This document shows, piece by piece, positions 1,329 through 24,494 of a stretch of 24,494 nt of DNA. Source of the DNA: Candidatus Methylomirabilota bacterium. Lineage in GTDB: Bacteria; Methylomirabilota; Methylomirabilia; Rokubacteriales; CSP1-6. The position numbers were made by a program, and so were the translations under genes. The notes beneath the pieces were generated by a model that was not told the origin of the DNA, ran no database searches, and was given only the letters and a program-made list of their open reading frames with translations. The stretch spans positions 1 to 24,494 of the forward strand of contig JBKPAK010000122.1 in assembly GCA_046726415.1 (NCBI GenBank), given 5' to 3'. The number at the start of each line of letters is the position of its first letter. The stretch's first letter is position 1.

Positions 1329-1427
1329 CGCGCGGTCTCCTGCGGCGGCATTGCCGATTGCGACCGCTCAGGGCGCCGGCCCGTCCGCGACGCATCCTGT
1401 GACGCGGAGTGATAAGGAGATCGAGGA

Positions 1428-2405
1428 ATGATCCGAACGCTCTGCGCGGCCGCCTTGCTCATCGGCACGCTGGTCCAGATGGCGGTCGCCGAGGAGCCGT
1501 ATCCTACGCGCGCCATCACGATCGTCGTGGCATTCCCGCCCGGCGGCCTCGCCGATCTGTCCGCGCGCCCGGTGGCGGCCGCGCTGGAAAAGATCTTGAA
1601 GCAACCCGTCGTCGTGGCCAACAAGCCCGGGGCGGCGGGAGCAGTGGGCAATCAGTCCGTGGCCAGCAGCAAGCCTGACGGATACACGCTCCTCATGGCC
1701 CTGGTGAGCGTCTCCGTCCTCCCGGAGGTCGACAAGCTTTTCGGCCGTCCCCCCACGTACACGCGCGACCAGCTCACCGGAATCGCGCGGGTCAACGCCG
1801 AGCCATCAATCCTTACCGTGCCGGCCAGTGCACCGTGGAAGACGGTGAAGGACCTCGTGGAGGACGCCAAGAAGCGTCCCGGAGAGATCGTCTTCACGTC
1901 GTCTGGACTCTATGGTGCCTCCCACGTGCCCATGGAGATGTTCTTGCATGCGGCCGGGGTCAAGATGCGCCACCTGCCAACGACCGGCGGCGGTCCGATG
2001 ATGAACGCCATTCTCGGCGGGCATGCCCAGGCGACGATGAGCACGACCGCCCTGGTAGCGCCCCACATGAAAGCGGGCAAGCTGCGGCTGCTCGCCCACA
2101 CCGGCGCCATGCCGATCGGCGCCTTCCCCGAGGTGCCGTCGTTCAGATCGCTGGGTTACGACGTGGACTACACGGCGTGGGCTGGGCTGGTGGCGCCGCG
2201 GGCGACGCCGACTCAGGTGGTCAAGATCCTGCGCGAGGCCATGCGCCAGGCCATGAGGGAGCCGGAGGTCGTCACCGCGTATACCAAGGTCGAGATGCCG
2301 GTAGCGTACATGGATGCCGACGAGTTCAACGCCTGGTGGGAGCAAGACGCGAGGCGGCTGGCCACGGTGGTCCAGAAGATCGGAAAGGTCGAGAGCGCGC
2401 AGTAG
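1428..2405 (+). CDS. tctC: Tripartite tricarboxylate transporter substrate-binding protein (Bug/TctC family)
   Basis: Signal peptide; YPTRAITIVVAFPPGGLAD, VVANKPGAAGAVG, KPDGYTLL motifs; AAGGAG SD. Confidence 0.92.
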   Translation: MIRTLCAAALLIGTLVQMAVAEEPYPTRAITIVVAFPPGGLADLSARPVAAALEKILKQPVVVANKPGAAGAVGNQSVASSKPDGYTLLMALVSVSVLPEVDKLFGRPPTYTRDQLTGIARVNAEPSILTVPASAPWKTVKDLVEDAKKRPGEIVFTSSGLYGASHVPMEMFLHAAGVKMRHLPTTGGGPMMNAILGGHAQATMSTTALVAPHMKAGKLRLLAHTGAMPIGAFPEVPSFRSLGYDVDYTAWAGLVAPRATPTQVVKILREAMRQAMREPEVVTAYTKVEMPVAYMDADEFNAWWEQDARRLATVVQKIGKVESAQ

Positions 2406-2414
2406 ACGGCGGCC

Positions 2415-2858
2415 GTGCTGACCATCGATCGCGCTGCCGGAGGGGCCCTCGCCGTGATCGGCCTCGTGACCTTGTGGCAGAGCCGGCAGTACCCGCTCGG
2501 CTCGCTGTATCGCCCCGGACCGGCGTATATGCCGGTCGTACTCGCCCTGCTGCTGATCATCTTCGGTCTCTTGCTCGCCGGGCTGGGGGCGCGAAGCCAG
2601 CGTTTGGGCACCGTCAGCTGGCACGAATGGCGGCACGCCGTGGCCATCTTTGCCGCCTGCGCCTTCGCCGCGTGGGGGCTCGAGCGGATCGGTTACCGGA
2701 TCACCATGGCGCTCGTGCTCCTGTTCCTCCTGGGCGCGCTGGAGCGGAGAGGAATCGCGGCCACCTTGCTGGTGACCGCCGCTGTGGCGGGCGGCTCGTT
2801 CTTCCTTTTCGACACCCTCCTCAGGGTGCCGCTGCCGCGCGGCCCGTTCGGGCTCTGA
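2415..2858 (+). CDS. tctB: Tripartite tricarboxylate transporter small membrane subunit
   Basis: About 4 TM helices; PGPAYMP motif; C-terminal LRVPLPRG; sits between tctC and tctA. Confidence 0.88.
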   Translation: MLTIDRAAGGALAVIGLVTLWQSRQYPLGSLYRPGPAYMPVVLALLLIIFGLLLAGLGARSQRLGTVSWHEWRHAVAIFAACAFAAWGLERIGYRITMALVLLFLLGALERRGIAATLLVTAAVAGGSFFLFDTLLRVPLPRGPFGL

Positions 2859-2859
2859 C

Positions 2860-4383
2860 GTGTTGGAGACGTTCCAGAACCTCTACCTCGGCTTCACGGT
2901 GGCCCTCTCGCCGGGGGTCCTCTGGTACGGATTCGTCGGCTGTGTGGTAGGCACCTTGGTGGGGGTGCTGCCCGGAGTCGGGCCACTGGCGGGGATCAGC
3001 CTGCTCCTGCCCGTCACGTTCGGTCTCGATGCCACGCGGGCCATCGTAATGCTGGCGGGCATTTACTACGGCGCTATGTACGGCGGCTCGACCACGTCGA
3101 TCCTGATGCGGATCCCCGGCGAAGCGGCCTCGGTCATGACCTGCATCGACGGCTACGCCATGGCCCGCAAGGGGCGCGCAGGACCGGCCCTGACCATCGC
3201 CGCGGTGGGCTCCTACGTGGCGGGCACCGCGAGCGTGGTGGCCCTCATGTTCCTGGCGCCCCCGCTGGCGTCCTTCGCCTTGCGCTTCGGGCCTCCGGAG
3301 TACTTCTCGTTACTCCTGCTCGGCCTCCTCGTCCTGGCGTACATGAACACGGGCTCGATGTTGAAGGGCCTTGCCATGGCTGCGCTCGGGCTCCTCCTCG
3401 GAATGATCGGCATCGACCAGATGAGCGGATACTTCCGCTTCGCCTATGGTGTCACCGAGCTGGGGGACGGCATCGGCGTCGTTCCGGTGGCCGTTGGCCT
3501 CTTCGGCCTTGCCGAGATCCTCTTCACCGCCGGCCAGGCGACGCCCCCAGAGGTCATCAAGCCGCGCCTTCGCGATCTCCTGCCCTCGCCCCGGGAGTTG
3601 CGGGAGGCGAATGCGCCCATCTGGCGGGGAACTGTCATGGGGTTCCTGATCGGGATCATCCCCGGCTCGGCTCACGTCATCTCCACGTTCGTCTCGTATG
3701 CGATCGAGCGCAGGCTGTCGAAGCGCCCGCACGAATTCGGGCAGGGGGCCGTGGCCGGGGTCGCCGGCCCGGAGTCGGCCAACAACGCGGCCACCTCGGG
3801 CGCCTTCGTGCCCATGCTGGCCCTCGGAGTGCCGGGCGTGCCCATCGCCGCCCTGCTGCTGGCGGCCATGATGGTGCATGGGGTAACGCCGGGGCCGCTG
3901 CTCATCAAGAACGACCCCCAGCTATTCTGGGGATTCATCGCCTCGATGTACGTGGGCAACGCCATCCTGCTCATCCTCAACCTGCCGCTGGTCGGGCTGT
4001 TCGTGAATCTCTTGCGCGTGCCGTATCCGCTCCTCTATCCGACCATCCTGGTCTGCTCCATCCTCGGCGTGTACGCCGTCAACAGCAGCGCGGTCGACGT
4101 GTGGATCATGCTGGCCATGGGGATCCTCGGATACGCGCTGCGCAAGCTCGATTTCGAGACCGCGCCCATCGTGCTGGGGCTGGTTCTGGCGCCGATGATG
4201 GAGCTGAGCTTGCGCCAGTCACTCGCCCTCTCGGCGGGCCGCTACGACATCTTCGTGACCCGACCCATCTCGCTCGCCCTGCTCGCGGTCGGCGCCGTGC
4301 TGGTGGCGCTGGCCCTTCGCCCGCTGATCTCGCGCACACTCGATTGGCGAGCCCGCATCCCCATCGAAAGCGATTCGCGATGA
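2860..4383 (+). CDS. tctA: Tripartite tricarboxylate transporter large permease subunit
   Basis: GTLVGVLPGVGP, YYGAMYGGSTTSIL, GVAGPESANNAA motifs; 507 aa polytopic membrane protein. Confidence 0.93.
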   Translation: MLETFQNLYLGFTVALSPGVLWYGFVGCVVGTLVGVLPGVGPLAGISLLLPVTFGLDATRAIVMLAGIYYGAMYGGSTTSILMRIPGEAASVMTCIDGYAMARKGRAGPALTIAAVGSYVAGTASVVALMFLAPPLASFALRFGPPEYFSLLLLGLLVLAYMNTGSMLKGLAMAALGLLLGMIGIDQMSGYFRFAYGVTELGDGIGVVPVAVGLFGLAEILFTAGQATPPEVIKPRLRDLLPSPRELREANAPIWRGTVMGFLIGIIPGSAHVISTFVSYAIERRLSKRPHEFGQGAVAGVAGPESANNAATSGAFVPMLALGVPGVPIAALLLAAMMVHGVTPGPLLIKNDPQLFWGFIASMYVGNAILLILNLPLVGLFVNLLRVPYPLLYPTILVCSILGVYAVNSSAVDVWIMLAMGILGYALRKLDFETAPIVLGLVLAPMMELSLRQSLALSAGRYDIFVTRPISLALLAVGAVLVALALRPLISRTLDWRARIPIESDSR

Positions 4384-4511
4384 CGCCCCGGCCCCCTCGA
4401 CCAGGCCACCCGCGGTGCACCCCGAGCAGGCGCTCCGATGAATCGACGCCCCGGCCCCCTCGACCAGGCCACCCGCGGTGCACCCCGAGCAGGCGCTCCG
4501 AATGGATCGAC
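4382..4511. repeat. Two near-identical tandem copies of a 63 bp unit between tctA and the molybdoprotein gene
   Basis: GACGCCCCGGCCCCCTCGACCAGGCCACCCGCGGTGCACCCCGAGCAGGCGCTCCGA at 4382 and 4445. Confidence 0.92.
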
Positions 4512-4539
4512 GGCGCCAATCCCGGAGGGTTTCTAACTC

Positions 4540-6852
4540 ATGGCTGAAGACGCAGGCGAGGTCGTCCGCCGCCGCGAGGATCCCCGACTGGTCACGGGAG
4601 CCGGGCAGTTCGTCGACGACCTGTGCTTCCCCGACTGCCTTCACCTCGCCGTTGTGCGCTCGCCCCATGCGCACGCGCGCGTCCGCGCCATCGACGGCGC
4701 GGCGGCGCGGCGCGCGCCAGGGATGCTGGGCGTTTTTACGGGAGTCGATCTCGGAACGGCCAACGCGCCGATGCCGACCTACGCGCCGCATCCGGCGCTG
4801 CCGATCGTCTGCGGCACTCGGCCCCTTGCCGTCGACCGCGTGCGCTTCGTGGGCGAGCCGGTGGCCGTCGTCGTCGCCACCGATCGGTACTGCGCCGAGG
4901 ACGCCCTCGATCTGGTCTCGGTGGACTATGAGCCCCTGCCCGCGGTGATCGACGTGGAAGCCGCTCTGGCCTCCGGAGCGCCGATGCTCCATGAGGAGCT
5001 CGGGGGCAACGTGGCCTCCGAGTGGTCCCAACGAGTCGGAGATCCGGAGGGGGCGTTTCGTACGGCCGAGGTCGTGGCGCGCACGCGCCTGCGGCTAGCC
5101 CGCGGCGGTGCTCACCCGCTGGAGCCCCGCGGACTGGTGGCGCAGTGGGCCGATGGGCAGCTCACGCTGTGGGCGGCCGTGCAGATGGTGCACCGCCACC
5201 GCAGCGTGTACGCGCCCCAGCTCGGTCTGGCCGAAGAGCAGATCCGCGTGGTGGCGCCCGCCGATGTCGGCGGTGGCTTCGGCACGAAGGGCATGTACTA
5301 CCCGGAATACGTGGTGACCGCTGCCCTCGCCATGAAGCTCGGGCGGCCCGTGAAGTGGATCGAGAGCCGGCGGGAGCACACCCTGGTCGCCTGCGTCGAG
5401 CGCGAGCAGATCCACGACATCGAGATCGCCGCCACGCGCGACGGGCGGCTCCTGGCGCTGCGCGATCGGTTCCTGCACGACCTGGGAGCCTACACCATCT
5501 CCGGACTCAACCTCCCGCAGAACACGATGATCCACTCAGTGGGACCGTACCGGATCCCCCACGTCGAGCTGAGCTTCCGCGCGGTGGTGACCAACACCAC
5601 GCCCGTGGGTGCCTACCGCGGCGCCGGACGGCCGCAGGGCACGGGAGTCAGCGAGCGGGCGATGGACGCCCTCGCCCACGAGCTGGGCATGGATCCCATT
5701 GAGGTGCGGCGTCGGAACCTCATCACCGCCGACCAGCACCCGTACGACACCGGGCTCATGACGGCGGGCCGGGGACCGGTGGTGTATGAGAGCGGCAACT
5801 TCCCCCAGTGCATGGAGCTGGCGCTGGAAACTCTCGACCTCCCGGCGCTGCGCCGGGAGCAGGCGCGACTGCTCACCGAGGGGCGCTACCTCGGTATCGG
5901 GGTGGTGAACTACATCGAGGCCACCGCCACTGTCCCCCACGAAAGCGCGATCGTGCGCGTGGGGCCGGAGGGGCAGGTGACCGTCGTCACCGGCGCGGCT
6001 CCGCAGGGACAGGGCCACGTCACCATGCTCTCCCATCTCGTGGGCGGCCTGCTCGATGTCGATCCCGGGGCCATCGACGTCTTGACCGGCGACACCGCGC
6101 TCATCGCCATCGGCGGCGGCACCTATGGAAGCCGCACGGCGGCCATCGGGGGAAGCGCGGCGCTTCTCGCCTCGCAGGTGGTGCGCGAGAAGGCCGCGCG
6201 CATCGCCGGGCATCTTCTCGAGGCGGCGCCGGCGGACATCGTCCTTCGGGACGGAAAGTTTTCGGTGAAGGGATTGCCCAGCCGGGCCACGGGCTGGGCA
6301 GAGGTTGCGGCGGCGGCGCATGCCGGAGGCAGTCCAGGTGAGGCGGCCGGGTTGGAGGATATGCAGGTCTTCAGCGTGCCGCAGTCGTCGTACGCCAACG
6401 GGACACACGCCGTGGTCGTCGAGGTCGATCCCGAGACCGGCGCGGTGACCATCCTGCGGTGGGTCGTGGCCCACGATTGTGGGCGCGTGCTGCAGCCGAC
6501 CTTGGTCGAGGGGCAGATCCATGGCGGGGTGGTGCAGGGGATCCCCGACGCGCTCAACGACCAGCTGGCCCATGACGAGACGGGGCAGCCGCTCGCGGCG
6601 ACCTTGATGGACTACGCGCTGGCCACCGCCGCCGATGCACCTCGGACGTTCGAGATCCGCCACCAGGAGTCGCCGACCCCGCTCAATCCGCTCGGAGCCA
6701 AAGGTGCGGGCGAGGGGGGGATCATGCCGGTACACCCGCTGATCGGCCAGGCCATCGAGGATGCGCTCGCCCCCTTCGGGGCGCGGATCACGCGGGTGCC
6801 GGTGACGCGCGTCGAGATCCGCGCACTGGTGGGCGGACAGCCGCCGGTCTGA
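4540..6852 (+). CDS. Xanthine dehydrogenase family molybdopterin-binding large subunit (form II CoxL-like)
   Basis: RREDPRLVTG, RSPHAHARV, VGGGFGTKG, AYRGAGRP, EGQIHGGVVQG, GAKGAGEGG motifs; 770 aa. Confidence 0.92.
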   Translation: MAEDAGEVVRRREDPRLVTGAGQFVDDLCFPDCLHLAVVRSPHAHARVRAIDGAAARRAPGMLGVFTGVDLGTANAPMPTYAPHPALPIVCGTRPLAVDRVRFVGEPVAVVVATDRYCAEDALDLVSVDYEPLPAVIDVEAALASGAPMLHEELGGNVASEWSQRVGDPEGAFRTAEVVARTRLRLARGGAHPLEPRGLVAQWADGQLTLWAAVQMVHRHRSVYAPQLGLAEEQIRVVAPADVGGGFGTKGMYYPEYVVTAALAMKLGRPVKWIESRREHTLVACVEREQIHDIEIAATRDGRLLALRDRFLHDLGAYTISGLNLPQNTMIHSVGPYRIPHVELSFRAVVTNTTPVGAYRGAGRPQGTGVSERAMDALAHELGMDPIEVRRRNLITADQHPYDTGLMTAGRGPVVYESGNFPQCMELALETLDLPALRREQARLLTEGRYLGIGVVNYIEATATVPHESAIVRVGPEGQVTVVTGAAPQGQGHVTMLSHLVGGLLDVDPGAIDVLTGDTALIAIGGGTYGSRTAAIGGSAALLASQVVREKAARIAGHLLEAAPADIVLRDGKFSVKGLPSRATGWAEVAAAAHAGGSPGEAAGLEDMQVFSVPQSSYANGTHAVVVEVDPETGAVTILRWVVAHDCGRVLQPTLVEGQIHGGVVQGIPDALNDQLAHDETGQPLAATLMDYALATAADAPRTFEIRHQESPTPLNPLGAKGAGEGGIMPVHPLIGQAIEDALAPFGARITRVPVTRVEIRALVGGQPPV

Positions 6853-11232: not shown

Positions 11233-13044
11233 CTACGCGCCCGGCGGCCGGAATTGCGGCGATCCCTTCGGCGGATAGTCCAGGGTGTCCCGAAGTCCGT
11301 TGACGCGATCGGGGGGGAACTCCGGCAAGAGCAAGGTGCCCTGCTCGCGCCACCGCTGCACCTCGGCCTCGGCGAGGCGAGCCCGCTCGGCGTCGACCCC
11401 CCGCGCGCTCCTGTACAGCGTCTGCGACGGAAAGGCGAAGCCGGTGCCGCTCGCCGTCACCACCTCCATGATGCGGAGGTAGATATCCTCCCGCACGGCC
11501 AGAAACTCGTTGTAGTCGGCGGTGCGCACGTAGGCATAGATCTCGACCTCGAGGGAGTAAGCGCCGAACCCCACGAAGCGGACACGGGCCGGATCGGGAT
11601 CGATCCGGGGGTGGGCATAGAGCAGCTCGCGCAGGCGAATCAGGACGTGGCGAAGCTGGTCGGGCGTCGTCTCGTATCGGAGGCCGAGCTTCACCTGCAG
11701 CCAGATGCGGTCGCGCTCGGCGAAGTTCTCGAGCCGAAGGTTGGAGAACTCCGCGTTGGGAACCGAGACAACGGTTCGGTCGAGCGTCCGCACGCGGGTG
11801 GAGCGCAGCCCTATCCGCTCGACCGTGCCGAGCTGATCGCCGAAGCGGCAGAAGTCGCCCACCTTCACCGGCTGATCCGCGATCAGCGTCAGCCCCCCGA
11901 AGAGGTTCTCTACCGTCTTCTGAGCAGCCAGGGCCACCGCGATGCCACCTACTCCGAGCCCGGCTAAGAGAGCGGTTACGTTGACCCCCAGAATGTCGAG
12001 CACGGTCAGGAGGCCCAGGATCAGCGCGACGAGCTTGGCGACCCGCTGGGCGAGATCGATCGCAGATAGCGTGGCCGCCTGGCCCCGCTGGATCACGGCC
12101 ATGCGAGCCATATCGCCCCCGACATCGATCAGGCGCAAGCCGAGCCATGTTACGGCGACCACCGCGATGAGCCCCTCGACGAGGCTAAAGCCGGGCTGGA
12201 TGGCGATGGGGAGAGCCAACGCGCGGCGGCCGGCGTGGAACGCGCCAACGGCGACCAGCAGGCGAAGAGGCGGCACCGACTCCCGGGGAAGCGTCGGCGC
12301 GGCCGCGGGGCGCCTCCGGGCTAGGACGAAGTGCAGAATGCGCAGGCCGACCGCGACGATGAGGCGTCCCAGGAGCACGGCCAGGCCGGCCAGCAGCACG
12401 AGAGCAATCCATTGCCAGAGCGGTATGCCGAGCGGCCGCCGTTCCACGAATACGGGCGGCAGAACCTCACCAACCGGCCCGTAGCCGAACTCCAGGTAGA
12501 GGGCGGGAATGGCGGCGACGGTTGCCTGAGAGAATTTCCAGACGAGCACGCCGTCCTCGCGCGGGACGCGCTCGACGATGATGCTCTGGGGACCCTTGCT
12601 CGTGGTGATACGCCCCACGAGATCGCGCCGGGCTGGCAATCCGTCGTCGTGCGTTCCGTCGGGATCGTCGGAAATCACGTCCGGGTCGATGAGCAGGGTC
12701 AGGTCCAGGACAACTCGCAGATGGCGCGCCAGCGCGGGCCCCTCGGTGGCCACCTCGGAAGGGCGCACGCGTCGCAGGTCGAGGTATTCGGCCGCCCTCC
12801 GGTAGTCGCGGTTGCGCGTGGTCTGGAGAAAGCCGGTCACCGTGCCTCGCGGAGTCCCTCGGCCGAACTCGTCGGCCGGGCTTGGGGGCCTCGACTCGGC
12901 GGCCGGGGCGGGTACGGGAGCGGACTGAGCCGACAGCAATTCGGCGCTCACCGCCATCAGAAGACCGCCGCCGACGAGGCCGGCGACGGCTCGCAGGAGG
13001 GACCGGGATGAAGTCCGGTGCGCGTGCAGAAGGTTCAGGGCCAT
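11233..13044 (-). CDS. mscS: MscS family mechanosensitive channel with large periplasmic N-terminal domain, about 603 aa
   Basis: LLAGLGVGGIAVALAAQKTVENLFGG, DQPVKVGDFC, GTVERIGLRSTRVRT, FAFPSQT; start chosen at ATG 13044 with GAGAGGAG SD. Confidence 0.88.
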   Translation of the reverse strand: MALNLLHAHRTSSRSLLRAVAGLVGGGLLMAVSAELLSAQSAPVPAPAAESRPPSPADEFGRGTPRGTVTGFLQTTRNRDYRRAAEYLDLRRVRPSEVATEGPALARHLRVVLDLTLLIDPDVISDDPDGTHDDGLPARRDLVGRITTSKGPQSIIVERVPREDGVLVWKFSQATVAAIPALYLEFGYGPVGEVLPPVFVERRPLGIPLWQWIALVLLAGLAVLLGRLIVAVGLRILHFVLARRRPAAAPTLPRESVPPLRLLVAVGAFHAGRRALALPIAIQPGFSLVEGLIAVVAVTWLGLRLIDVGGDMARMAVIQRGQAATLSAIDLAQRVAKLVALILGLLTVLDILGVNVTALLAGLGVGGIAVALAAQKTVENLFGGLTLIADQPVKVGDFCRFGDQLGTVERIGLRSTRVRTLDRTVVSVPNAEFSNLRLENFAERDRIWLQVKLGLRYETTPDQLRHVLIRLRELLYAHPRIDPDPARVRFVGFGAYSLEVEIYAYVRTADYNEFLAVREDIYLRIMEVVTASGTGFAFPSQTLYRSARGVDAERARLAEAEVQRWREQGTLLLPEFPPDRVNGLRDTLDYPPKGSPQFRPPGA

Positions 13045-13131
13045 GACGAGCTCCTCTCGATCACGTGATCGCAGCGTCTCGGCGGACGGTGACGGCTCGA
13101 AGCAACACCTCACCACGGGGACAACGGGTCG

Positions 13132-13161
13132 AGGGTAGGGAGCGGGTGCAGACCGCGTCAA
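13132..13161 (-). promoter_or_regulatory. Putative sigma70 promoter for mscS
   Basis: TTGACG-N18-TACCCT on the minus strand, about 90 bp upstream of the start. Confidence 0.4.
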
Positions 13162-13395
13162 GGGAGGGCCGGCGCTCGGTCGGACGCAAAGCCCGGCGAA
13201 ACCTCGACGAGGCCGTAGCCGTGCAGCGCCGTCGCCACGCCAAGGTGGCTCCCTCGGCCTGGGCCGGAAGCCGCGCCGACCCGCGTTGCCAGCGAGCCGG
13301 GCATACCGTCCATCAAAACGTCGCGGACGCCCCGGAGAGGTAGCGCGGTACGTCCCGTCGGCGGTCGCGAGCTACGTCGGGTCGGCGATTGCGAG

Positions 13396-14157
13396 CTACT
13401 TCCGGTCGGGGCTGGCCATGGCCGCCAGCGACTCTTTGATGGTCGGTGCTTTGCCGCCCTCGACGTCGCGTCGTCGGATCCGATGGAACCCGGTGAGAAT
13501 CTCGTTGGCCCGGGCCAGCTCGGCGACGCGCTGGGCGAACGGTTCGAGGCGCTCGCCGGGGATGGCGTAGAGCGCCACGTCGTCGGTCATGACATCGAGG
13601 TACGCGCGAGCTCCACAGCACCCAAGGCTCAGGGCCGTGCGTCCTGTGTTCTTGGCTTGCGGGACGATGGCGCACGCCGGGCGTCCCATGGCCGGCGGCA
13701 GCCCGCCTTCTAGCGACTGCGAGGCTTCGGAAAGGATGAGCGTCTGGTCGGCGCGCACGAAGAGCAGAACGACGTCGGGCGCCAGCGGCGCCTCGGCGAG
13801 CGGCCCGTAGACGACGAAGGCCGGACGTCGCGCCAACACCGGGATGCCCGGAATGTCCTCGGGACGCACGTAACCCAGCTCGGCGAAGACGTGAAGCGCG
13901 TCGCGGCGATCGACCTCGTGCGCGGAGGTGATGGCGAGGTTGTGGGTGAACGTCCCGATGGCGCAGAGATCGTGATCCTTCGGCCCGGTGACGAAGGTGC
14001 GCGTGGCCGCCTCCTGCCAGAAACGACACCCGGCGGGAACGCGACCGGCGAAGCCTGGTACGCCGGCCGGCGGCGCGTCCGCGAAGGACATGGCCAGGGG
14101 CGGTTGCCTCAACTTCAAAGCGGTCGTCAGAGTTGACGCGATCTTCCTCACCGACAT
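13396..14157 (-). CDS. DUF169-like Cys-rich protein, 253 aa (alternative GTG start at 14196)
   Basis: L.L...PLA start, GCRFWQEA, LCAIG, YGPL....L.PDVV, GRPACA, SLGCCGAR; GAAAGGAG SD before ATG 14157. Confidence 0.75.
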   Translation of the reverse strand: MSVRKIASTLTTALKLRQPPLAMSFADAPPAGVPGFAGRVPAGCRFWQEAATRTFVTGPKDHDLCAIGTFTHNLAITSAHEVDRRDALHVFAELGYVRPEDIPGIPVLARRPAFVVYGPLAEAPLAPDVVLLFVRADQTLILSEASQSLEGGLPPAMGRPACAIVPQAKNTGRTALSLGCCGARAYLDVMTDDVALYAIPGERLEPFAQRVAELARANEILTGFHRIRRRDVEGGKAPTIKESLAAMASPDRK

Positions 14158-14185
14158 CGGCGTGACTCTCCTTTCAGGGGCGATC

Positions 14186-15481
14186 TCATCGCTCACCTCG
14201 GGGCGCGTGTGCCGACGAACCCTCGGTCCTCCCGCCGCTCGCTCGCCCGCGGTCGTCGATCTCGAATTCGAGGCGCGCGTGGGCCGCGCGGAGCGCCGCC
14301 TCCACCTCGGCCGGACTCTCGGCCAGGGCGAAGATGAAACCGAGGTATTGCCAGCCCTCCGGCAGCGGGATCAGGGCTTGGTCGACGTGTGCCGAGATCA
14401 CCACGTCTTCGATGCCGGCCACCGCACGGGCGGCGTCCAATCCATGCACGGCGCGCAGCTGCCCGGCCCGCGGGATCGGAATCATCATGACGCCGGCGGC
14501 GCGTCCCGCGCGCTCGGTCGACTCGAGGGGCCAGCCGAGGGCGTGGCGGAGAATCAACTCCTCCAGGCTCATGCCTGTCCCGAAGCGCAGAGTGCGCGAG
14601 CAGAGGCCGCCGATCGAGCGCGCGGCCACCTCGACGACCCAGGGCCCATCGTCGTTCACGCGGAGTTCGGCGTGCACCGGGCCCTCGGTGAGGCCGAGGG
14701 CGGCGCCGGCCTCGGCCGCGGCGGCGGCGATTGCCTTCTGCACGGAATCGGGAAGCCGCGACGGCGTGACGTAGAGCGTCTCCTCGAAGAAGGGCCCGTC
14801 CAGAGGATCGGGCTTGTCGAAGAGGGCGAGGACGCGAAAGTCGCCACCGACCACCAGGCCCTCGAGGGCCACCTCCGCACCGGGGACGAACACCTCGACG
14901 AGCACCGCGCGCTGCCCCTCGTCGGCCACCGCCACGTCGGCGCTGTCCAGGATGGTTCGAATGCGCTCGACCGCGGCCACGAACTGGGGGGGATCGTCGG
15001 CGCGGATCACCCCGCGGCTGGCTGAGAGCGTCAACGGCTTGACCACGCACGGATAGTCTATGGCGCGCGCGACGGCCGCGTGGTCCGCATCAAGGTTGAC
15101 GAGCCTGAAGGCCGGTTGCCGTACGCCGGCGACGGCGAGGCGCTCGCGCATGAGGTGCTTGTTTCGGGCCGCGGCGGCGGAAGCGATGGAGTTCGCCCTG
15201 AGGCCGAGGCGGGCGGCGATGGCGGCAGCGACCAGGGTTGCCCGATCATCCACGCCCACCACCGCACTGAGGGGACGACGTGCGGCAAACTGGGCGACCG
15301 CCGCCGCGGCGCCTTCGGGATCGGCAAAGTTAACCGTCAGGAGATGGTCGGGATCGAACGGTTCGAAGGCGCTGGGCATCTCCGACGCGCAGACCAGGTC
15401 GACGCCCAGCCCGCGCGCCGCCTCGACGAAGTCCTCGGTGCGGTAGGTCGTGGTCGGCAAGAGGAGCAGCAGGCGATCCAC
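14186..15481 (-). CDS. ATP-grasp ligase, L-amino-acid-ligase-like, 431 aa
   Basis: ARNKHLMRERL, YPCVVKPLTLSASRGV, LVEVFVPGAEVALEG, GPVHAELR, EVAARSIGG; GTG start at 15481 with GAGGGG SD. Confidence 0.88.
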   Translation of the reverse strand: MDRLLLLLPTTTYRTEDFVEAARGLGVDLVCASEMPSAFEPFDPDHLLTVNFADPEGAAAAVAQFAARRPLSAVVGVDDRATLVAAAIAARLGLRANSIASAAAARNKHLMRERLAVAGVRQPAFRLVNLDADHAAVARAIDYPCVVKPLTLSASRGVIRADDPPQFVAAVERIRTILDSADVAVADEGQRAVLVEVFVPGAEVALEGLVVGGDFRVLALFDKPDPLDGPFFEETLYVTPSRLPDSVQKAIAAAAAEAGAALGLTEGPVHAELRVNDDGPWVVEVAARSIGGLCSRTLRFGTGMSLEELILRHALGWPLESTERAGRAAGVMMIPIPRAGQLRAVHGLDAARAVAGIEDVVISAHVDQALIPLPEGWQYLGFIFALAESPAEVEAALRAAHARLEFEIDDRGRASGGRTEGSSAHAPRGER

Positions 15482-15506
15482 GTGCCCCTCGTCCGAGCGT
15501 GACGGA

Positions 15507-15788
15507 TCAGGCCTTACCGGGCGTGTAGTACGGGTTGGAGCCCGCCGCGTGATCGGTGGTGTCAACCACCTCCCCGACCTCGGGGATCTCATCCTTGATG
15601 AGGCGCTCAATGCCGGCCTTGAGCGTCACGTCGGACATGCCGCAGCCCTGGCAACCGCCCCCGAGCTGGAGATATACGCGATCGTCCTGCACGTCGATCA
15701 GCTCGACGAAGCCCCCGTGACCGGCCACGGCGGGGTTGATCATAGTGTCGATGAGATCCTGGACCCTCGTCTTGAGATCGTCGCTCAT
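15507..15788 (-). CDS. NifU-C/NfuA-type Fe-S cluster carrier protein, 93 aa
   Basis: INPAVAGHGGFVEL, LGGGCQGC (CxxC), TLKAGIE, DTTDH..G.NPYY; AAGGAGGTGA SD before ATG 15788. Confidence 0.9.
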   Translation of the reverse strand: MSDDLKTRVQDLIDTMINPAVAGHGGFVELIDVQDDRVYLQLGGGCQGCGMSDVTLKAGIERLIKDEIPEVGEVVDTTDHAAGSNPYYTPGKA

Positions 15789-15801
15789 GGCGTCACCTCC
15801 T

Positions 15802-17223
15802 TCACACAGGTACTGTAACTGACTTTCCCGTGAGGGCCAACTGGCCCTCGGTGGGCTCCGCTCAGCAAAACCACGGCTCGCTGAGCCGCGGAGCCCGCGT
15901 CCGCGGCTCGAGCCGCGTTGCCCCCCGACGGGGGGAAAGTCCGGCCGCGCCATCGGCGACCGCCACGATCCGGCCAAACGTCGTCACCGAGTCCTCCCCG
16001 GCGGTCGCGGCCTCCGTCACCAGGGTCGTCACGTCGCGGTGCAGCCGCTCCATGACGGGATCCCGATGCGTCCACTCGTAGTAGAAGTCCTCGGCGACGA
16101 GTCGGCCGAGATAGGGACGCATGGCGGGATTCCCGGCGAGGAGGGAGCCGGGAGGAACCAGGAGCCGGATGGAGAACTGCACGGGATCGACCGCATCGAT
16201 CAGCCCCTCGCGCTCCACGAAATCGAGCATATCGCGGTAGTCGCCGAGCGTGGTCCAGGGCGTGAAGGGCACCCATGTTGGCCGCAGGGTCATCCCGGCC
16301 GCGCGCACCGCGCGAAGCACCTCGAACACGTCGCTCCGCGTATGGCCTTTGGCGAGGTGACCTAGAACGGTCTCGCTCAGCGACTCCACCGCGGACACGA
16401 TGAAGAGACAGCCGGCCTCGGCCAGCTCGCCCAATCGGTGGCGGTGCCGCAGGAGGTGCTCGACCTTGGTCGTGATGTCGAATGTCACGTGCGGGAACGC
16501 GCCATGAACACCGTGGGCCACCATAAATGCGTGGCCGGGACCGTTCAGGAAGTCGGGGTCGCCGAACGTGATGTGTGTGGCGCCTGCCTCCACGAGCTGG
16601 CGCACGTCGGCGAGCACCACCTGTCGTGGAACGACGAAGAAGCGACCGCCATAGATCGGCGGGATGGGGCAGTGCGCGCACAGATGCCGGCAGCCGCGGC
16701 TCGCCTCGACGTAGCCGGCCAGCTCCTGGCGTCCATCGCGTTCGAGACGAGCATATTTCTTGAGCGACGGCAGGCCATGACGGCTCGGGGTCGGGAAGAC
16801 GAGCTTCTCGAGCCGGGGGTCGATGCGGGCGCCGTTCTCGCGCGCGCGCTCGAGGTTCTCCACGAGCTGGACCAGCGCCTGCTCCACCTCTCCGGCCAGG
16901 AGGGAGTCGACGCCCCGCGACCTCAGATACTCGGCGTTGAGTGTCGCGTAGAGCCCAAAGAACGCGAGATGACAGCCGGGATTGATCTCGCGCACTCGCT
17001 CCGCGACGCGAATGCCCAGGCGCAGCGCGGTATGCATGGGCACGGAGACGGCGACCAGCCGGGCCCGGCGCACCTTGTCGGGATCGAACGGCTCCACCGA
17101 TAAGTCCATGACCGCGGGCTTGTAACCGTGGCGCTCGAGGAATGCGGCTGGCCACGCCAAGGTCAAGGGCTGGTGGCCCATTTCGTAGCACGCGACAAGC
17201 ACAATTGCGCCCGGCTCTCGCAT
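15802..17223 (-). CDS. CUAEP-tail radical SAM selenoprotein with N-terminal B12-binding-like domain, 473 aa, Sec at residue 454 (UGA 15862-15864)
   Basis: EASRGCRHLCAHC (CxxxCxxC); N-terminal YEMGHQPL...DLSV...SVPMHTA domain; reading through UGA gives ...EPWFC-U-AEPTEGQLALTGKSVTVPV* ending 13 bp before the NfuA-type gene; SECIS-like hairpin follows. Confidence 0.88.
15827..15855 (-). promoter_or_regulatory. Bacterial SECIS-like hairpin
   Basis: mRNA UGA-GCGGAG-CCC-ACC-GAGGGCC-AGUU-GGCCCUC-AC-GGG: 7 bp perfect upper stem, 4 nt loop with G at position 2 followed by U, loop 19 nt after the UGA. Confidence 0.8.
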
Positions 17224-17229
17224 AGGGCG

Positions 17230-17259
17230 AGTCTACGCCCGTGGTAGTGTAGGCGCCAA
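17230..17259 (-). promoter_or_regulatory. Putative sigma70 promoter giving a leaderless transcript for the radical SAM operon
   Basis: TTGGCG-N18-TAGACT ending 6 nt before ATG 17223; no SD before that ATG. Confidence 0.4.
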
Positions 17260-17308
17260 CGCGCTGTGGCGACTCCCCGCGAGGGCGCTGATCCCAGGAG
17301 GAACGCTG

Positions 17309-17500
17309 ATGACCGTCAAGATTGCCTGTCGTCCCAACGGCCCTTACCTGATCGAGGGCGAGGTCGAGGTCTACGACCCCGCCGGGAACAAGATCGATAC
17401 CAGCTCGCGTCCCCGCATCGCCCTGTGTCGCTGCGGCGGCGCAGCCTCGAAGCCCTTCTGCGACGGCACGCACAACAAGATCGCCTTCCAGGCGAGCTGA
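17309..17500 (+). CDS. CDGSH iron-sulfur domain protein, 63 aa
   Basis: NGPYLI; LCRCGGAASKPFCDGTH (CxC...PxCDG(S/T)H); AGGAGG SD. Confidence 0.9.
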   Translation: MTVKIACRPNGPYLIEGEVEVYDPAGNKIDTSSRPRIALCRCGGAASKPFCDGTHNKIAFQAS

Positions 17501-17503
17501 TGA

Positions 17504-17675
17504 GATGGGGGGCCTCGAAAGGGCCCCCCAAGGCCCCCAGCGCTCGTCGCGCCCCGGGGAACCCGGAGCGCTCCTCGATACCGCGCGAGGTATGGGAGGG
17601 CCGACGCGGCTGGGCGCGTGCTCCTGGAGGCTTTCCCAAGCCCCCGCGGTCGTCGCGCCCCGCGGAACTCGCGCT
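17504..17675. repeat. REP-like GC-rich palindromic element plus a degenerate second copy between convergent genes
   Basis: TGGGGGGCC-N7-GGCCCCCCA hairpin at 17506-17530; CCCAAG(G)CCCCC..TCGTCGCGCCCCG.GGAAC occurs at about 17527 and 17635. Confidence 0.7.
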
Positions 17676-17684
17676 GAAGCGGCG

Positions 17685-18266
17685 TCACCGCACCTGGCGA
17701 CGTGCCTCCAGGAGGAGTGCCGCCATGTCCTCGAGGAGGCGCATGACCTCCGGTCCTGTGCTCCGCCACGGTCCGGCCACGACGCGCTCCGTCTGCCACA
17801 CTGTCGCGGGGAAGGGACGCGGTACTCCGGACAGCGTCACCGTCCGTTCCACACTGAGCCGGAGAGCGCCAACCCCGTAGGTGCCGGAGAAGGGAAGCCA
17901 GAATCCACGCAGGGTGGTGGCGTTCACGGGGCGCACCAGCACGGCGAGTCGCACGCGATCGGGCGCCGAATCCTGGACGGCCAGCGCGGGTTCGGCACCG
18001 CGCAGCAGCTCCTCGAGGCGGACAAGCACGTCTTCGATCGGGAAGTCATCGAGTGGCGCCTCGAGATCGAGGCTCACGGCGACCCGCCGGAGACCGGCCA
18101 GCCCCACCGGGTCATCCGCTGCCTCGGCGCGCGCCAGGAGCAGGTCGGCCCCCCATCTCACCTGACAAGCCAGAACGATGGCGAGCGCGGGCAGCGCGAC
18201 GGCGATGACCAGCGCCGCCGAATGCCACCGTCGCCTGGCAAGTCGCACTCTGCCCTCCAGGGGCAT
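17685..18266 (-). CDS. Hypothetical membrane-anchored or exported protein, about 193 aa
   Basis: N-terminal basic region and hydrophobic helix (AALVIAVALPALAIVLAC), then a globular-looking domain; GAGGA upstream of ATG 18266; start uncertain. Confidence 0.6.
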   Translation of the reverse strand: MPLEGRVRLARRRWHSAALVIAVALPALAIVLACQVRWGADLLLARAEAADDPVGLAGLRRVAVSLDLEAPLDDFPIEDVLVRLEELLRGAEPALAVQDSAPDRVRLAVLVRPVNATTLRGFWLPFSGTYGVGALRLSVERTVTLSGVPRPFPATVWQTERVVAGPWRSTGPEVMRLLEDMAALLLEARRQVR

Positions 18267-18368
18267 GCCATGTCCTCGGGCGGAGGCTCCGCGGGCCGGT
18301 ATTGTATCGGAGGGGCGGATCGAGCCGCGAGCGGCCGGTGTCCAATTGATTGGAGGGAGCAGGCGTGC

Positions 18369-18589
18369 GAGCTGGAAATACGACCATCTCGTCGTCGCCC
18401 TCGGCAGGATGACGAGCTTCCGCGCCGCGCCGAGGCTCGCCGAGCCTGCGCTGGATGCACGTATCTCGGCGACGCGCTGGCCATCTGCAACCACGTCATC
18501 CAGAGCCTTCGGAGAGGCCGACATCGGGCCGGATCCAAGTGCGCCAGCGCCTCCTCACCTTTGTCGTGGCGGAAGGCGACTTCTCCGCA
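18369..18589 (+). pseudogene. Degraded internal fragment of a type II NADH dehydrogenase-like FAD oxidoreductase
   Basis: YDHLVVALGRMTSF..PRLAE / YLGDALAICNHVIQSL / EADIGPDP / RQRLLTFVVAEGDFS spread over three frames, matching the NDH-2 order YDxLVxAxG...DAxxxRN...LTFVVxGGG. Confidence 0.72.
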
Positions 18590-18669
18590 TCTCGGCATCT
18601 TCCCGGCGTCTTCGAGCGGCTGGTCGAGGAATGCCTGGCGCCGGAGGGGCGGACCTCAGGCCAACTCCA

Positions 18670-18698
18670 TTGACAGTGTCGCGGGCGCCTCGTAGGCT
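18670..18698 (+). promoter_or_regulatory. Putative sigma70 promoter for the anti-sigma-like gene
   Basis: TTGACA-N17-TAGGCT followed by GGGGAG SD and GTG/ATG. Confidence 0.6.
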
Positions 18699-18713
18699 CA
18701 GCGGGGAGATGTG

Positions 18714-18941
18714 ATGACCTGTCAGGACGCCATCGCGCTTCTCAGCGACTACCTGGACGCTGCGCTCGGGCCGGACGCGCTGGCCGATCTCGAGCGCCAC
18801 TTGCGCGAATGTGCGCCGTGCCTGGCCTATCTCAACACGTTCAGGGTCACGCAGCGCCTGGCTGCAGAGGCTGGCCGCATCGAGCTACCCGACGAGATGA
18901 AGGAGCGCTTGCGGAGCTTCCTGCTCGATCGCCTCCGGTGA
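18714..18941 (+). CDS. Zinc-binding anti-sigma factor domain protein (ZAS/zf-HC2), 75 aa
   Basis: MTC.....LSDYLD and HLRECAPC (HxxxCxxC); soluble, no TM. Confidence 0.82.
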   Translation: MTCQDAIALLSDYLDAALGPDALADLERHLRECAPCLAYLNTFRVTQRLAAEAGRIELPDEMKERLRSFLLDRLR

Positions 18942-19816: not shown

Positions 19817-21333
19817 ATGGCGCAGACCGCGATCTCCGAACTGCTGAGACCGGCGAGCCCTTGCACCGTCGTCATCTTCGGGGCGGCCGGTGATTTGACC
19901 AAGCGAAAGCTGATTCCCGCGCTCTACAACCTGAAGGCGAACGGGCTCCTGCCTCGCGAGTTCGCCATCGTCGGCGTGACCCGCAAGGCAAAGAGCCACG
20001 AGCAGTTCCGCGAGGAGCAATCCCAGGACATCCGCGATTTTGCCACCGTGAAGGTGGACGATCGCCTCTGGAAGGAGCTGCGGGACGCCCTCTATTACCA
20101 GGCCGGCGAGTTCTCGGATCCCGCCGTCTACACGCAGCTCGCGGTGCTGCTCGGTGAGGTGGCCAAGACACATCGCACGGGTGGCAACGTCCTGTTCTAC
20201 TTGGCCGTGCCCCCCCACTTCTTCAGCGAGATCGTGCGGCGCCTCGCCGAGGCCGGCCTCGTCCGGGAGGAGAACGAGGTGTGGCGGCGGGTCATCATCG
20301 AAAAGCCGTTCGGTCACGATCTGGAGTCCGCCCACGCTCTCAACACCGAGCTGGCCGCCACGCTCCGGGAGGAGCAGATCTACCGCATCGACCACTACCT
20401 GGGCAAGGAGACCGTGCAAAACATCATGGTCTTCCGCTTCGCCAACGGCCTCTTCGAGCCGATCTGGGATCGGCGCTACATCGATCACATCCAGATCAAG
20501 GTGGCGGAGACGGTGGGCGCCGAGGATCGCGGCAACTACTACGACAAGGCCGGTGTCCTGCGCGACATGATCCAGAATCACATGTTCCAGCTCCTGGCCT
20601 TGGTGGCCATGGAGCCGCCCAGCTCGTTCGCGGCTGACGCCGTGCGCGACGAGAAGGTGAAAGTCTTGAAATCCATCCGGCCCATGCTGCCCGAGCAGGT
20701 GCTGCGGGACACCGTTCGCGGACAGTACGGCGTGGGCGAGTTCAACGGCGAGCGAGTCCCCGCGTACCGCAGCGAGCCGAAAGTGTCGCCCACCTCGAGC
20801 ACCGAGACCTACGCGGCCGTGAAGCTGCAAGTGGAAAACTGGCGGTGGGCCGGCGTGCCCTTTTATCTGCGGTCGGGCAAGCGCCTGGCCCGGCGCGATA
20901 CCGAGATCATGATCCAGTTCCGGCGGCCGCCCTTGCTGCTCTTCGAGGGAGAGGACATCGATCACATCGACCCCAACCGCTTGCTCATCCACATCCAGCC
21001 GGACGAGGGCATCGAGTTCCTCATGAAGGCCAAGCAGCCCGGGCCCGTGGTGAGACTCACGACCGTGAAGCTCGCCTTCAACTATCGCGATTTCGGCGAG
21101 GCAAGCCCCGCCACCGGCTACGAGCGACTGCTCTACGACAGCATGATCGGCGACGGGACGCTCTTCCACCGCGCCGACATGGTGGAGGCGGCGTGGAAGA
21201 TCGCCACGCCTCTGCTCGACGTCTGGCAGACGATTCCTCCGCGCGATTTCCCCAACTACGCGGCTGGCTCCAACGGGCCGGCGGCGGCCGACGCCCTGAT
21301 GCACCGAGACGGGCGGGCGTGGTGGAATCCCGC

Positions 21334-21337
<4 letters not shown>
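19817..21337 (+). CDS. zwf: Glucose-6-phosphate 1-dehydrogenase, 506 aa
   Basis: [59 protein letters not shown] before ATG 19817. Confidence 0.96.
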
Positions 21338-24036
<2,699 letters not shown>

Positions 24037-24064
24037 GGGCGCCCGCTGAGGCGCGGTCAGACAA

Positions 24065-24143
24065 TCGACCGAGCCCCACGGCACGGTCGGGGCGCTCCGA
24101 GTCTCCAGGGGGGTGTGGGCGGCCGTGTCGCGGCCCCGCCGTC
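24065..24143 (-). repeat. Degenerate copy of the REP-like element seen at 17504
   Basis: Reverse complement GACGGCGGGGCCGCGACACGGCCGCCCA..CCCCC..CTCGGAGCGCCCCG..GCTCGGTCGA parallels GATGGGGGGCCTCGAAAGGGCCCCCCA..CCCCC..CTCGTCGCGCCCCG..GCTCCTCGA. Confidence 0.55.
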
Positions 24144-24301
24144 CTCGTCCGGCTCGCCAACCTCTAACTTCGAGCGATCCAAGGACCCCTATCTGGAAGA
24201 GCGGAAACGCGTCCTCGATCGCGTGCTCGCTGGTCACCGGCGATGAGCGTTGCCGGACGGGTCACGCGAATGGTGTGGGCGCACAGGGAAGGAGAGGAGC
24301 C

Positions 24302-24430
24302 ATGAAACCGACGAGACCGAGAAACTTTCTGGTGATCTGGTCCATGCTCGCCGCGCTGATCGCAGTCGGTGCAATCGCGGTCACACCTCTGGCGATGGAG
24401 GCTGGCCCGACTTGCTCCGGATGCGGATGA
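24302..24430 (+). CDS. Small signal-peptide-bearing protein with C-terminal CxxC, 42 aa
   Basis: GGAAGGAGAGGAG SD; MKPTRPRNFLVIWSMLAALIAVGAIAVTPLAMEAGPTCSGCG*. Confidence 0.55.
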   Translation: MKPTRPRNFLVIWSMLAALIAVGAIAVTPLAMEAGPTCSGCG

Positions 24431-24494
24431 CCGCGAGGGCAGTGGCTACGCGTAGCGCTGGCGGAGGGACTCCCAGAGGGCCGTCTTGGTCCAG

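Follow-up and report, generated by a model that had tools for sequence, protein, structure and literature searches.

A 24,494-nucleotide (nt) stretch of DNA from a Candidatus Methylomirabilota bacterium (GenBank assembly GCA_046726415.1, contig JBKPAK010000122.1; the whole stretch is termed the window below) carries four minus-strand genes that occupy positions 13396–17223 in both the list of open reading frames (ORFs) and the strand sequence and encode a radical S-adenosylmethionine (SAM) enzyme, an Nfu-type iron-sulfur (Fe-S) carrier, an ATP-grasp enzyme of the L-amino-acid ligase (LAL) type, and a DUF169 protein. The radical SAM enzyme belongs to a family that was already known and curated, NF040546; what is computed here is the decoding of an in-frame TGA in its gene as selenocysteine (Sec), its kinship with ArsL, and the recurrent linkage of the genes as a module. 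We tentatively propose, at somewhat under an even chance, that the operon serves a small-molecule pathway centered on this CUAEP/CCAEP-tail selenoenzyme, in which an ArsL-like transfer to an atom held by a Cys-Sec pair would be followed by ligation into a dipeptide.

The closest relatives of ArsL form a far larger family, encoded in at least 588 species-genome stretches and in 110 of 151 genomes of the phylum, and the CUAEP family places Sec where ArsL binds its substrate. Solving the module would show what DUF169 and a common bacterial selenoprotein do, and it could uncover a hitherto unseen metabolite, an amino acid or a dipeptide, in soil bacteria that are abundant but mostly uncultured.

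Selenocysteine decoding and ArsL kinship of the radical SAM enzyme

Translated with table 11, the radical SAM gene yields an ORF of 453 amino acids (aa) that is halted at the in-frame TGA (Table 1); read-through adds 20 codons and gives the tail F-C-U-A-E-P-T-E-G-Q followed by 11 more residues, with F-C-U-A-E-P-T as residues 452 to 458. A pattern scan of one genome per species returned at least 600 stretches, with relatives of the enzyme encoded in at least 588, and the best 80 loci were used for counts (records of Rokubacteria/Methylomirabilota, Planctomycetota, Gemmatimonadales, Blastocatellia, Nitrospirota, Poribacteria, Chloroflexota, and others). In these loci plus the window, the codon following a conserved W-F/Y-C is TGA in 63 sequences, TGC or TGT in 14, and cut off by a contig end in four; the motif C-(U/C)-A-E-P is present in 77 of the 81 sequences, the remainder being the same contig-end cuts (the regular expression used for this tail search also matched two unrelated places), and the peptide A-E-P-T-x-x-Q is conserved in frame past the TGA. 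A wider homologue search scored 8000 candidates, 7999 of which were significant matches. Among 150 listed representatives at 50% identity, 42 end exactly at the Cys preceding the Sec position, 41 have C-C-A-E-P, two have R-C-C-x-K-C, and 65 are fragments or unclassified. Sec and Cys forms interchange at least seven times in a quick unrooted tree of 68 rows.

Just past the codon lies a hairpin resembling a selenocysteine insertion sequence (SECIS), for which compensatory changes occur at four of five consensus pairs in 35 Sec-form sequences; the co-varying hairpin is seen in TGA forms only. The 45 nt past the codon fold more stably in TGA forms than in Cys forms, with mean energies of −16.1 kcal/mol (n = 62) and −9.3 kcal/mol (n = 13), respectively (Mann-Whitney p = 1.3e-5); a single TGA locus had too little sequence to be included, and the filter removed a single Cys locus whose motif deviates. 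The genome carries selA (591.9 bits), selB (374 bits), selD (335.6 bits), and tRNA-Sec (71 bits), with selA, selB, and tRNA-Sec clustered on contig C313 (28622–32915). Judged by this comparative evidence, the TGA at 15862–15864 is a Sec codon, and the selenoprotein call made by a prior reading of the window without database searches (the sequence-only reading) is borne out by the 63 TGA versus 14 Cys codons, the downstream peptide, the hairpin, and the sel genes. As a separate observation, the selD match of this genome (G000, contig C223, 11994–12938) has an in-frame TGA of its own, and SelD here is probably itself a selenoprotein.

Against NF040546 the enzyme scores 652.9 bits (cut-off, 500), with protein positions 7–463 aligned to positions 1–467 of the 468-position model; it shares the full-length match, the C-U-A-E-P tail, and the CxxxCxxC motif with that family and differs from it in nothing defining. 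It is thus a member of a curated family and not of an unknown one. A whole-genome search finds a single NF040546 gene (646.4 bits) with one TGA inside the match. A passage of a 2022 bioRxiv preprint calls the family uncharacterised and describes CU dyads as rare, listing them otherwise in MerT-family, MerB-like, and HgcA proteins (Haft, 10.1101/2022.07.06.499078).

The second-best NCBIfam match is the ArsL family, NF040542, at 314.8 bits and 1e-93, with the third-best family at only 43.9 bits and 1e-11; the ArsL relationship put forward by the sequence-only reading is now computed. Because the ArsL score stays below the cut-off of 450 bits, the enzyme is to be regarded as a relative of ArsL rather than as ArsL itself, and a profile search of the genome, in which this enzyme scores 314.4 bits, found no ArsL-grade match elsewhere. 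On sequence grounds, ArsL is the nearest characterised relative of the enzyme.

The two proteins have the same two-domain layout (in Pfam, Radical_SAM at 47 bits and B12-binding at 34.8 bits, the latter an N-terminal Rossmann domain of B12-binding-like type). The cluster motif, C178/C182/C185, is invariant in 32 aligned sequences, an alignment that contains neither a third conserved Cys outside this motif nor an auxiliary-cluster Cys motif. The enzyme is 33–35% identical to two representatives with an RCCxKC tail, and both have the cluster motif; motifs around D222/F225, H256, E280, K292, and P322-W323 are also common to the enzyme and the ArsL-type rows, and the ArsL-type Cys pair aligns with C453/U454, the CUAEP family having ~50 additional residues before the tail. 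The tails themselves differ: that of ArsL is R-C-C-L-K-C at the very end, whereas the enzyme carries Cys-Sec inside an E-x-W-F-C-U-A-E-P-T motif. The ArsL-like layout inferred by the sequence-only reading holds for the two domains and the Cys pair but not for the family score or the RCCLKC tail, of whose three Cys the enzyme offers only C453 and, as its partner, U454.

A phylogeny with ArsL was run as the quick tree mentioned above, which is unrooted, lacks an outgroup, and comprises 68 of 271 proteins picked by length (420–520) and a recognisable tail. In it, the two ArsL-type rows form a pair (99% support) that attaches to a single CCAEP row on a long branch, within the remaining CUAEP/CCAEP rows. 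The tree supports ArsL kinship, without a clean sister relationship.

The gene module, its second copy, and fusions

The gene module recurs across phyla. Within 5 kb of the enzyme gene, an ATP-grasp gene is found in 33 of the 80 loci (20 of the 42 loci whose two flanks each extend 3 kb or more), an Nfu gene in 28 (18 of 42), a DUF169 gene in 20 (14 of 42), and a gene for a CDGSH-type [2Fe-2S] protein in nine (5 of 42). At least one of these four partners is present in 50 loci (31 of 42), and ATP-grasp, Nfu, and DUF169 occur all together in four. Recurrence in other phyla indicates that the arrangement is not a chance one, and the conserved synteny on which the sequence-only reading depended is found in these 50 species loci. 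The CDGSH gene, which that reading counted as part of the system, is adjacent here, but it is a neighbor only in loci of the Rokubacteria type: all nine loci in which it lies divergently upstream are Rokubacteria/Methylomirabilota records. Clustering of neighbors adds a YggX-type iron-trafficking gene just upstream in 11 loci and an IscA-type carrier in six (one member of each cluster was confirmed by Pfam), bringing loci with an iron or Fe-S carrier of the Nfu, YggX, or IscA type to 44 of 80 and those with any of the six partner types to 61 of 80. A different make-up is observed in the Poribacteria loci L060, L065, L070, L074–L076, L083, L087, and L092, where the enzyme gene precedes genes for DUF169 and a short-chain dehydrogenase and neither ATP-grasp nor Nfu is encoded within 5 kb.

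A survey of the phylum covered 151 genomes at least 80% complete, including five unpublished ones on which the conclusions do not depend. The enzyme exceeds the NF040546 cut-off in 110 of them, nearly always with one TGA within the match, and the ligase is present at E ≤1e-60 in 119. When the enzyme is tallied at a best E of ≤1e-50, which lets in contig-end fragments, enzyme and ligase occur together in 110 genomes, the enzyme alone in six, the ligase alone in nine, and neither in 26, related genomes not being independent in this count. Homologues of DUF169 are present in 69 of the 151 genomes, but just a subset of them adjoins the module: six close orthologues follow the ligase gene, and Methylomirabilis-like families have DUF169 next to the enzyme and ligase genes or between them.

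The domain calls made for the five proteins in the window are borne out, with all matches above the Pfam cut-offs. Only the label “NfuA” has to be dropped: the Nfu protein is a 92-aa NifU-domain protein (Pfam NifU, 86.4 bits) that scores 94.6 and 81.4 bits against the NfuA equivalogs TIGR03341 and NF008392, versus cut-offs of 268–269 bits (269 for the label at issue), and covers only model positions 105–190. Outside the Rokubacteria, Nfu is ~200 aa in length and has Nfu_N plus NifU domains. NfuA works with the sulfur-inserting radical SAM enzymes LipA, BioB, and MiaB, and by analogy the presence of a dedicated Nfu-type carrier next to the radical SAM enzyme here hints at a cluster in need of rebuilding. 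The systems differ in that no auxiliary-cluster Cys motif is conserved in the NF040546 enzyme and in that Nfu here consists of the NifU domain only.

Its L-amino-acid-ligase type is agreed on for the ATP-grasp enzyme by three Pfam domains (ATP-grasp_4, 111.3 bits; LAL_C2, 64.5 bits; ATPgrasp_N, 35.8 bits) and by solved relatives, the closest of which is the L-amino acid ligase BL00235 (PDB 3vot, 2e-41), with BacD (3vmm) at 4e-17; the same three-domain architecture is common to the ligase and these two proteins. Scores against the BacD and DdaF equivalogs stay far below the cut-offs (67.9 versus 850 and 55 versus 840 bits), and the ligase here is tied to a radical SAM gene, whereas BacD is tied to bacilysin genes.

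DUF169 matches PF02596 at 61.7 bits (gathering score, 27), and its nearest ESM Atlas clusters are all DUF169. Six of its residues do not vary across 20 module-linked homologues (D74, H75, C78, C175, C193, and R197), and two more, C57 and H85, are almost invariant. The predicted structure (pLDDT 90) has no clear match to a known fold: the best Foldseek hit against the PDB has an E value of 0.017 and a TM score of ~0.18, VIA-align against 48,161 chains gives a best Z of 4.4, and a sequence search of the PDB returns nothing below E 0.59. A search for fusions found one longer protein, with DUF169 as its sole domain match, and the few publications naming the family give no function in the passages available. 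The CDGSH protein (PF09360 zf-CDGSH, 68.1 versus 29.5 bits) shows the C-x-C...C-D-G-x-H motif in its translation and is possibly the operon's electron or cluster donor.

A second copy of the module is represented in the same genome by a ligase paralogue (61% identity) on contig C77 (locus L097, 4279–7538, minus strand), where the gene order is IscU-like/ferredoxin-domain protein, Rieske protein, Nfu, ATP-grasp paralogue, and an IS21 IstB fragment, without a radical SAM gene. In related loci this “type 2” module consists of the ferredoxin-domain protein, the Rieske protein, a Sec radical SAM enzyme 59% identical to that of the window, Nfu, and ATP-grasp: genome G030 (L100, contig C107, 4866–8725) has an intact radical SAM gene, flanked by Rieske and Nfu; the gene is in two pieces in G140 (L099, contig C9) and reduced to remnants in G130 (L098, contig C1). 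We considered C77 as an Nfu-ligase unit independent of the enzyme and rejected this after comparison with these three genomes; by sequence, the locus looks like a decayed copy of the paralogous module.

Gene fusions provide a further source of linkage, with the qualification that P0256, P0134, and P0272 are each single-member clusters. P0256 (850 aa) is an in-frame ATP-grasp–radical SAM fusion with a C-C-A-A-P tail. In P0134 (695 aa, a metagenome representative), a proline-rich linker connects a CCAEP enzyme in frame with a MerB-like (alkylmercury lyase) domain (PF03243, 1.2e-14), and a C-A-x-D motif, which we take to be the catalytic motif, is visible in the sequence. In P0272, a PaaK-like adenylating ORF runs into the start of the enzyme without a stop. 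Two other candidates, P0273 and P0274, were rejected as ATP-grasp fusions: out-of-frame stretches cross the tail, marking them as frame-shifted read-throughs, and they are counted as adjacency only.

Proposed function and rival explanations

In the pathway that we propose, the [4Fe-4S] cluster of the enzyme would cleave SAM at the Cγ–S bond, as in ArsL, and the aminocarboxypropyl (ACP) group would be moved to an atom held by the Cys-Sec tail, for which S, Se, Te, As(III), Sb(III), and Hg(II) are candidates. The product would be a methionine-shaped 2-amino-4-X-butanoate that the ATP-grasp ligase would couple to a second amino acid, yielding a dipeptide; that is, we infer that a new amino acid is made and then ligated. 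Nfu would keep a labile or sacrificial cluster loaded, and the CDGSH protein would supply electrons, as the products of the Rieske and ferredoxin-type genes likely do in the paralogous module. DUF169, with its four conserved Cys and two His, would be an accessory metal or Fe-S protein and may deliver the atom or electrons.

The precedent comes from published accounts of ArsL: ArsL forms 5′-methylthioadenosine and an ACP radical, its Cys tail binds As(III) and is required for activity, and an Fe-C(ACP) species attacked by a nucleophile has been proposed. According to that literature, no radical SAM enzyme of canonical fold other than ArsL is known to cleave SAM at the Cγ–S bond, and the identity of the product made by the module would show whether such non-canonical cleavage is a general strategy. 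Dph2 resembles the proposal in that a [4Fe-4S] enzyme takes an ACP group from SAM; it differs in its unrelated fold, its lack of a CxxxCxxC motif, and its target, a protein histidine. An account of BL00235 lists Met-Gly and Met-Met as products (PMC6920838), and the methionine shape would match, by analogy and as a lead only, that of the expected ACP-derived amino acid. In support of a coupling to carboxylate activation, we list the 33 of 80 loci with ATP-grasp, the co-occurrence in 110 of 151 genomes, the P0256 fusion, and the P0272 run-in. The MerB-like fusion P0134, together with the CU dyads of MerT, MerB-like, and HgcA proteins, is a hint of organometallic chemistry.

Several points weigh against this proposal. 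Sequence alone does not reveal where SAM is cleaved; two soft ligands are available in the tail, versus three in ArsL; and the Cys-Sec pair sits in a conserved, structured motif and not at the very end of the protein. No ATP-grasp gene lies within 5 kb of the enzyme in 47 of 80 loci, all six partner types are missing from 19 of 80 (some of which have short flanks), and none of ATP-grasp, Nfu, DUF169, and CDGSH occurs in 11 of the 42 long-flanked loci (3 kb or more on each side). The spread of the enzyme through 110 of 151 genomes is more easily reconciled with housekeeping or detoxification than with a rare antibiotic. P0273 and P0274, two of the three longest apparent fusions, look frame-shifted, and P0134 is a single sequence, for whose MerB-like domain no match at E ≤1e-3 was found in the window, in the 80 loci, or in the extra loci. 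A scan of the whole window at Rfam gathering thresholds gives no matches, such that no curated SECIS model supports the hairpin, and full-text literature searches found no experimental study of any NF040546 member.

A different account would have the enzyme perform canonical chemistry, with a 5′-deoxyadenosyl radical or methyl transfer acting on a free amino acid or small molecule, the Cys-Sec pair serving as a redox selenenylsulfide arm, and the ligase working before or after. C-terminal dyads of thioredoxin reductase and MerA carry reducing equivalents, and Sec is typical of redox catalysis. The embedding of the tail in a conserved motif (E449, W451, AEPT..Q) suggests docking over loose metal binding, and small electron carriers adjoin the enzyme, namely CDGSH here and the Rieske and ferredoxin-domain proteins in the paralogous module. 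Nearly all PF04055 enzymes, moreover, make 5′-deoxyadenosine, with ArsL and TsrM named as outliers in the literature available. The nearest characterised relative by a wide margin is nevertheless ArsL, itself non-canonical, and its paired Cys align with C453/U454; we regard canonical chemistry as doubtful, while keeping it as a serious contender.

Narrower than our proposed pathway, and to our minds unlikely, is the version in which the CUAEP/CCAEP enzymes form a second, much larger ArsL-type branch that joins ACP to a soft, non-arsenic atom (Se, Te, Sb, or Hg) on the Cys-Sec dyad, the partner ligase converting the product to a dipeptide. If it were true, hundreds of soil and marine bacterial species would make unrecognised organo-chalcogen or organometal amino acids.

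Quite improbable, in our estimate, is that the module modifies a protein or peptide (in the manner of ribosomally synthesized peptides or post-translationally), possibly the tail of the enzyme itself, and not free amino acids. Peptide maturation makes use of ATP-grasp as well as radical SAM enzymes, and a protein is the target of Dph2, the other enzyme that works through an ACP radical. All-against-all clustering of ORFs within 6 kb in the 80 loci, however, yields no conserved small precursor ORF: the clusters common to at least six loci are partner genes, antisense or overlapping frames, and lineage-specific neighbors. The ligase, in addition, has LAL_C2, and its best solved relatives make dipeptides.

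The sequence-only reading had suggested a soft metalloid such as arsenic: the Cys-Sec tail would bind As(III) or methyl-As(III), and an arsinothricin-like organoarsenical would be ligated into a Trojan-horse peptide. ArsL kinship and the aligned Cys pair speak for it, as does a report that ArsL purifies with adventitious arsenic on its tail. The enzyme falls below the ArsL cut-off, however, and presents two soft ligands where ArsL binds As by three. A Pfam scan of the window ORFs found no ars family (the stretches 17500–18700 and 21300–24494 gave few or no family matches), in agreement with the earlier statement that no arsM or ars resistance gene is in the window, and the locus, unlike that of ArsL, is without an arsM or arsQ neighbor. 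Furthermore, no ars-like cluster is found among the annotated clusters common to at least six of the 80 loci, and the genome has no ArsL-grade match elsewhere. ArsL loci are described as arsQML without Nfu, and the published ArsL accounts at hand report no Fe-S carrier or ligase neighbors such as those of the enzyme locus. As(III) as the substrate of the tail thus finds no support in ligand number or ars genes, and we rate the arsenic pathway as very unlikely; since the enzyme fails the ArsL score, tail, and ars-neighbor comparisons, arsenic is only one of several candidate substrates.

Finally, a role in iron or Fe-S homeostasis (cluster repair or a cluster-ligating dipeptide, with no new amino acid) would suit the iron or Fe-S carriers adjoining the enzyme in 44 of 80 loci and the C77 arrangement of Nfu and ATP-grasp with IscU-like/ferredoxin and Rieske genes but no radical SAM gene, but it is highly improbable given that C77 looks decayed (its counterpart being intact in G030, split in G140, and present as remnants in G130, with an IS21 fragment after the C77 ligase) and that the P0256 fusion and the P0272 run-in point to substrate chemistry.

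The proposed pathway of ACP transfer and dipeptide ligation is directly testable, because the module is compact and a Cys variant of the enzyme exists in nature.

Layout of the locus and neighboring genes

The features of the locus are collected in Table 1. Its four co-oriented genes and the CDGSH gene, which lies upstream of the operon on the opposite strand, have the spacing given by the sequence-only reading, as confirmed by the ORF list and the sequence: 13 bp between the radical SAM and Nfu genes (15789–15801, valid only when TGA 15862–15864 is decoded), 25 bp between Nfu and the ligase (15482–15506), 28 bp between the ligase and DUF169 (14158–14185), and 85 bp between the radical SAM and CDGSH genes (17224–17308). 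An alternative GTG start of DUF169 at 14196 would produce an 11-nt overlap with the ligase gene.

Table 1. Positions of module genes and recoding elements in the window
Feature	Position	Strand	Details
CUAEP/CCAEP-tail radical SAM selenoprotein	15802–17223	−	ATG 17223; final stop TGA 15802–15804; 473 aa plus stop
In-frame TGA read as selenocysteine 454	15862–15864	−	Cys-codon homologues, conserved downstream peptide, hairpin, Sec machinery
SECIS-like hairpin	15832–15849	−	7-bp stem (15843–15849 with 15832–15838); 4-nt loop 15839–15842; 12 nt after the TGA; centroid fold
Nfu-type Fe-S carrier	15507–15788	−	ATG 15788; stop 15507–15509; 92 aa; NifU C-terminal domain only; CxxC motif
LAL-type ATP-grasp enzyme	14186–15481	−	GTG 15481; stop 14186–14188; 431 aa
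DUF169 protein	13396–14157	−	ATG 14157; stop 13396–13398; 253 aa
CDGSH-type [2Fe-2S] protein	17309–17500	+	63 aa; divergent from the operon

A scan of 13000–17700 found no promoter-like sites and five terminator-like sites versus 1.7 expected; the one at 15871–15891 sits inside the tail-coding region and was not read as a terminator. The stretch is found in soil metagenomes, and a 356-nt contig from a soil RNA library (run X20) matches 15421–15776 with five differences, covering Nfu and the first 61 nt of the ligase. This contig is a weak hint of expression, as such contigs prove neither transcription nor a single transcript.

Downstream of the CDGSH gene, ~1.2 kb (17500–18700) separate it from a zf-HC2 anti-sigma-type gene (18711–18941) and contain long ORFs on both strands without a Pfam match. 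Other flanking genes with Pfam assignments encode a mechanosensitive channel (11236–13161), DUF1330 and DUF2214 proteins, dehydrogenases, a glucose-6-phosphate dehydrogenase, and a glycoside hydrolase, together with a TctABC transporter and a molybdopterin enzyme; these genes look unrelated to the module, which is therefore a compact unit. The last two lie at 1416–6852, where TctC, TctB, and TctA of a tripartite tricarboxylate transporter are followed by the molybdopterin enzyme, of the xanthine-dehydrogenase type, a group apparently unrelated to the module.

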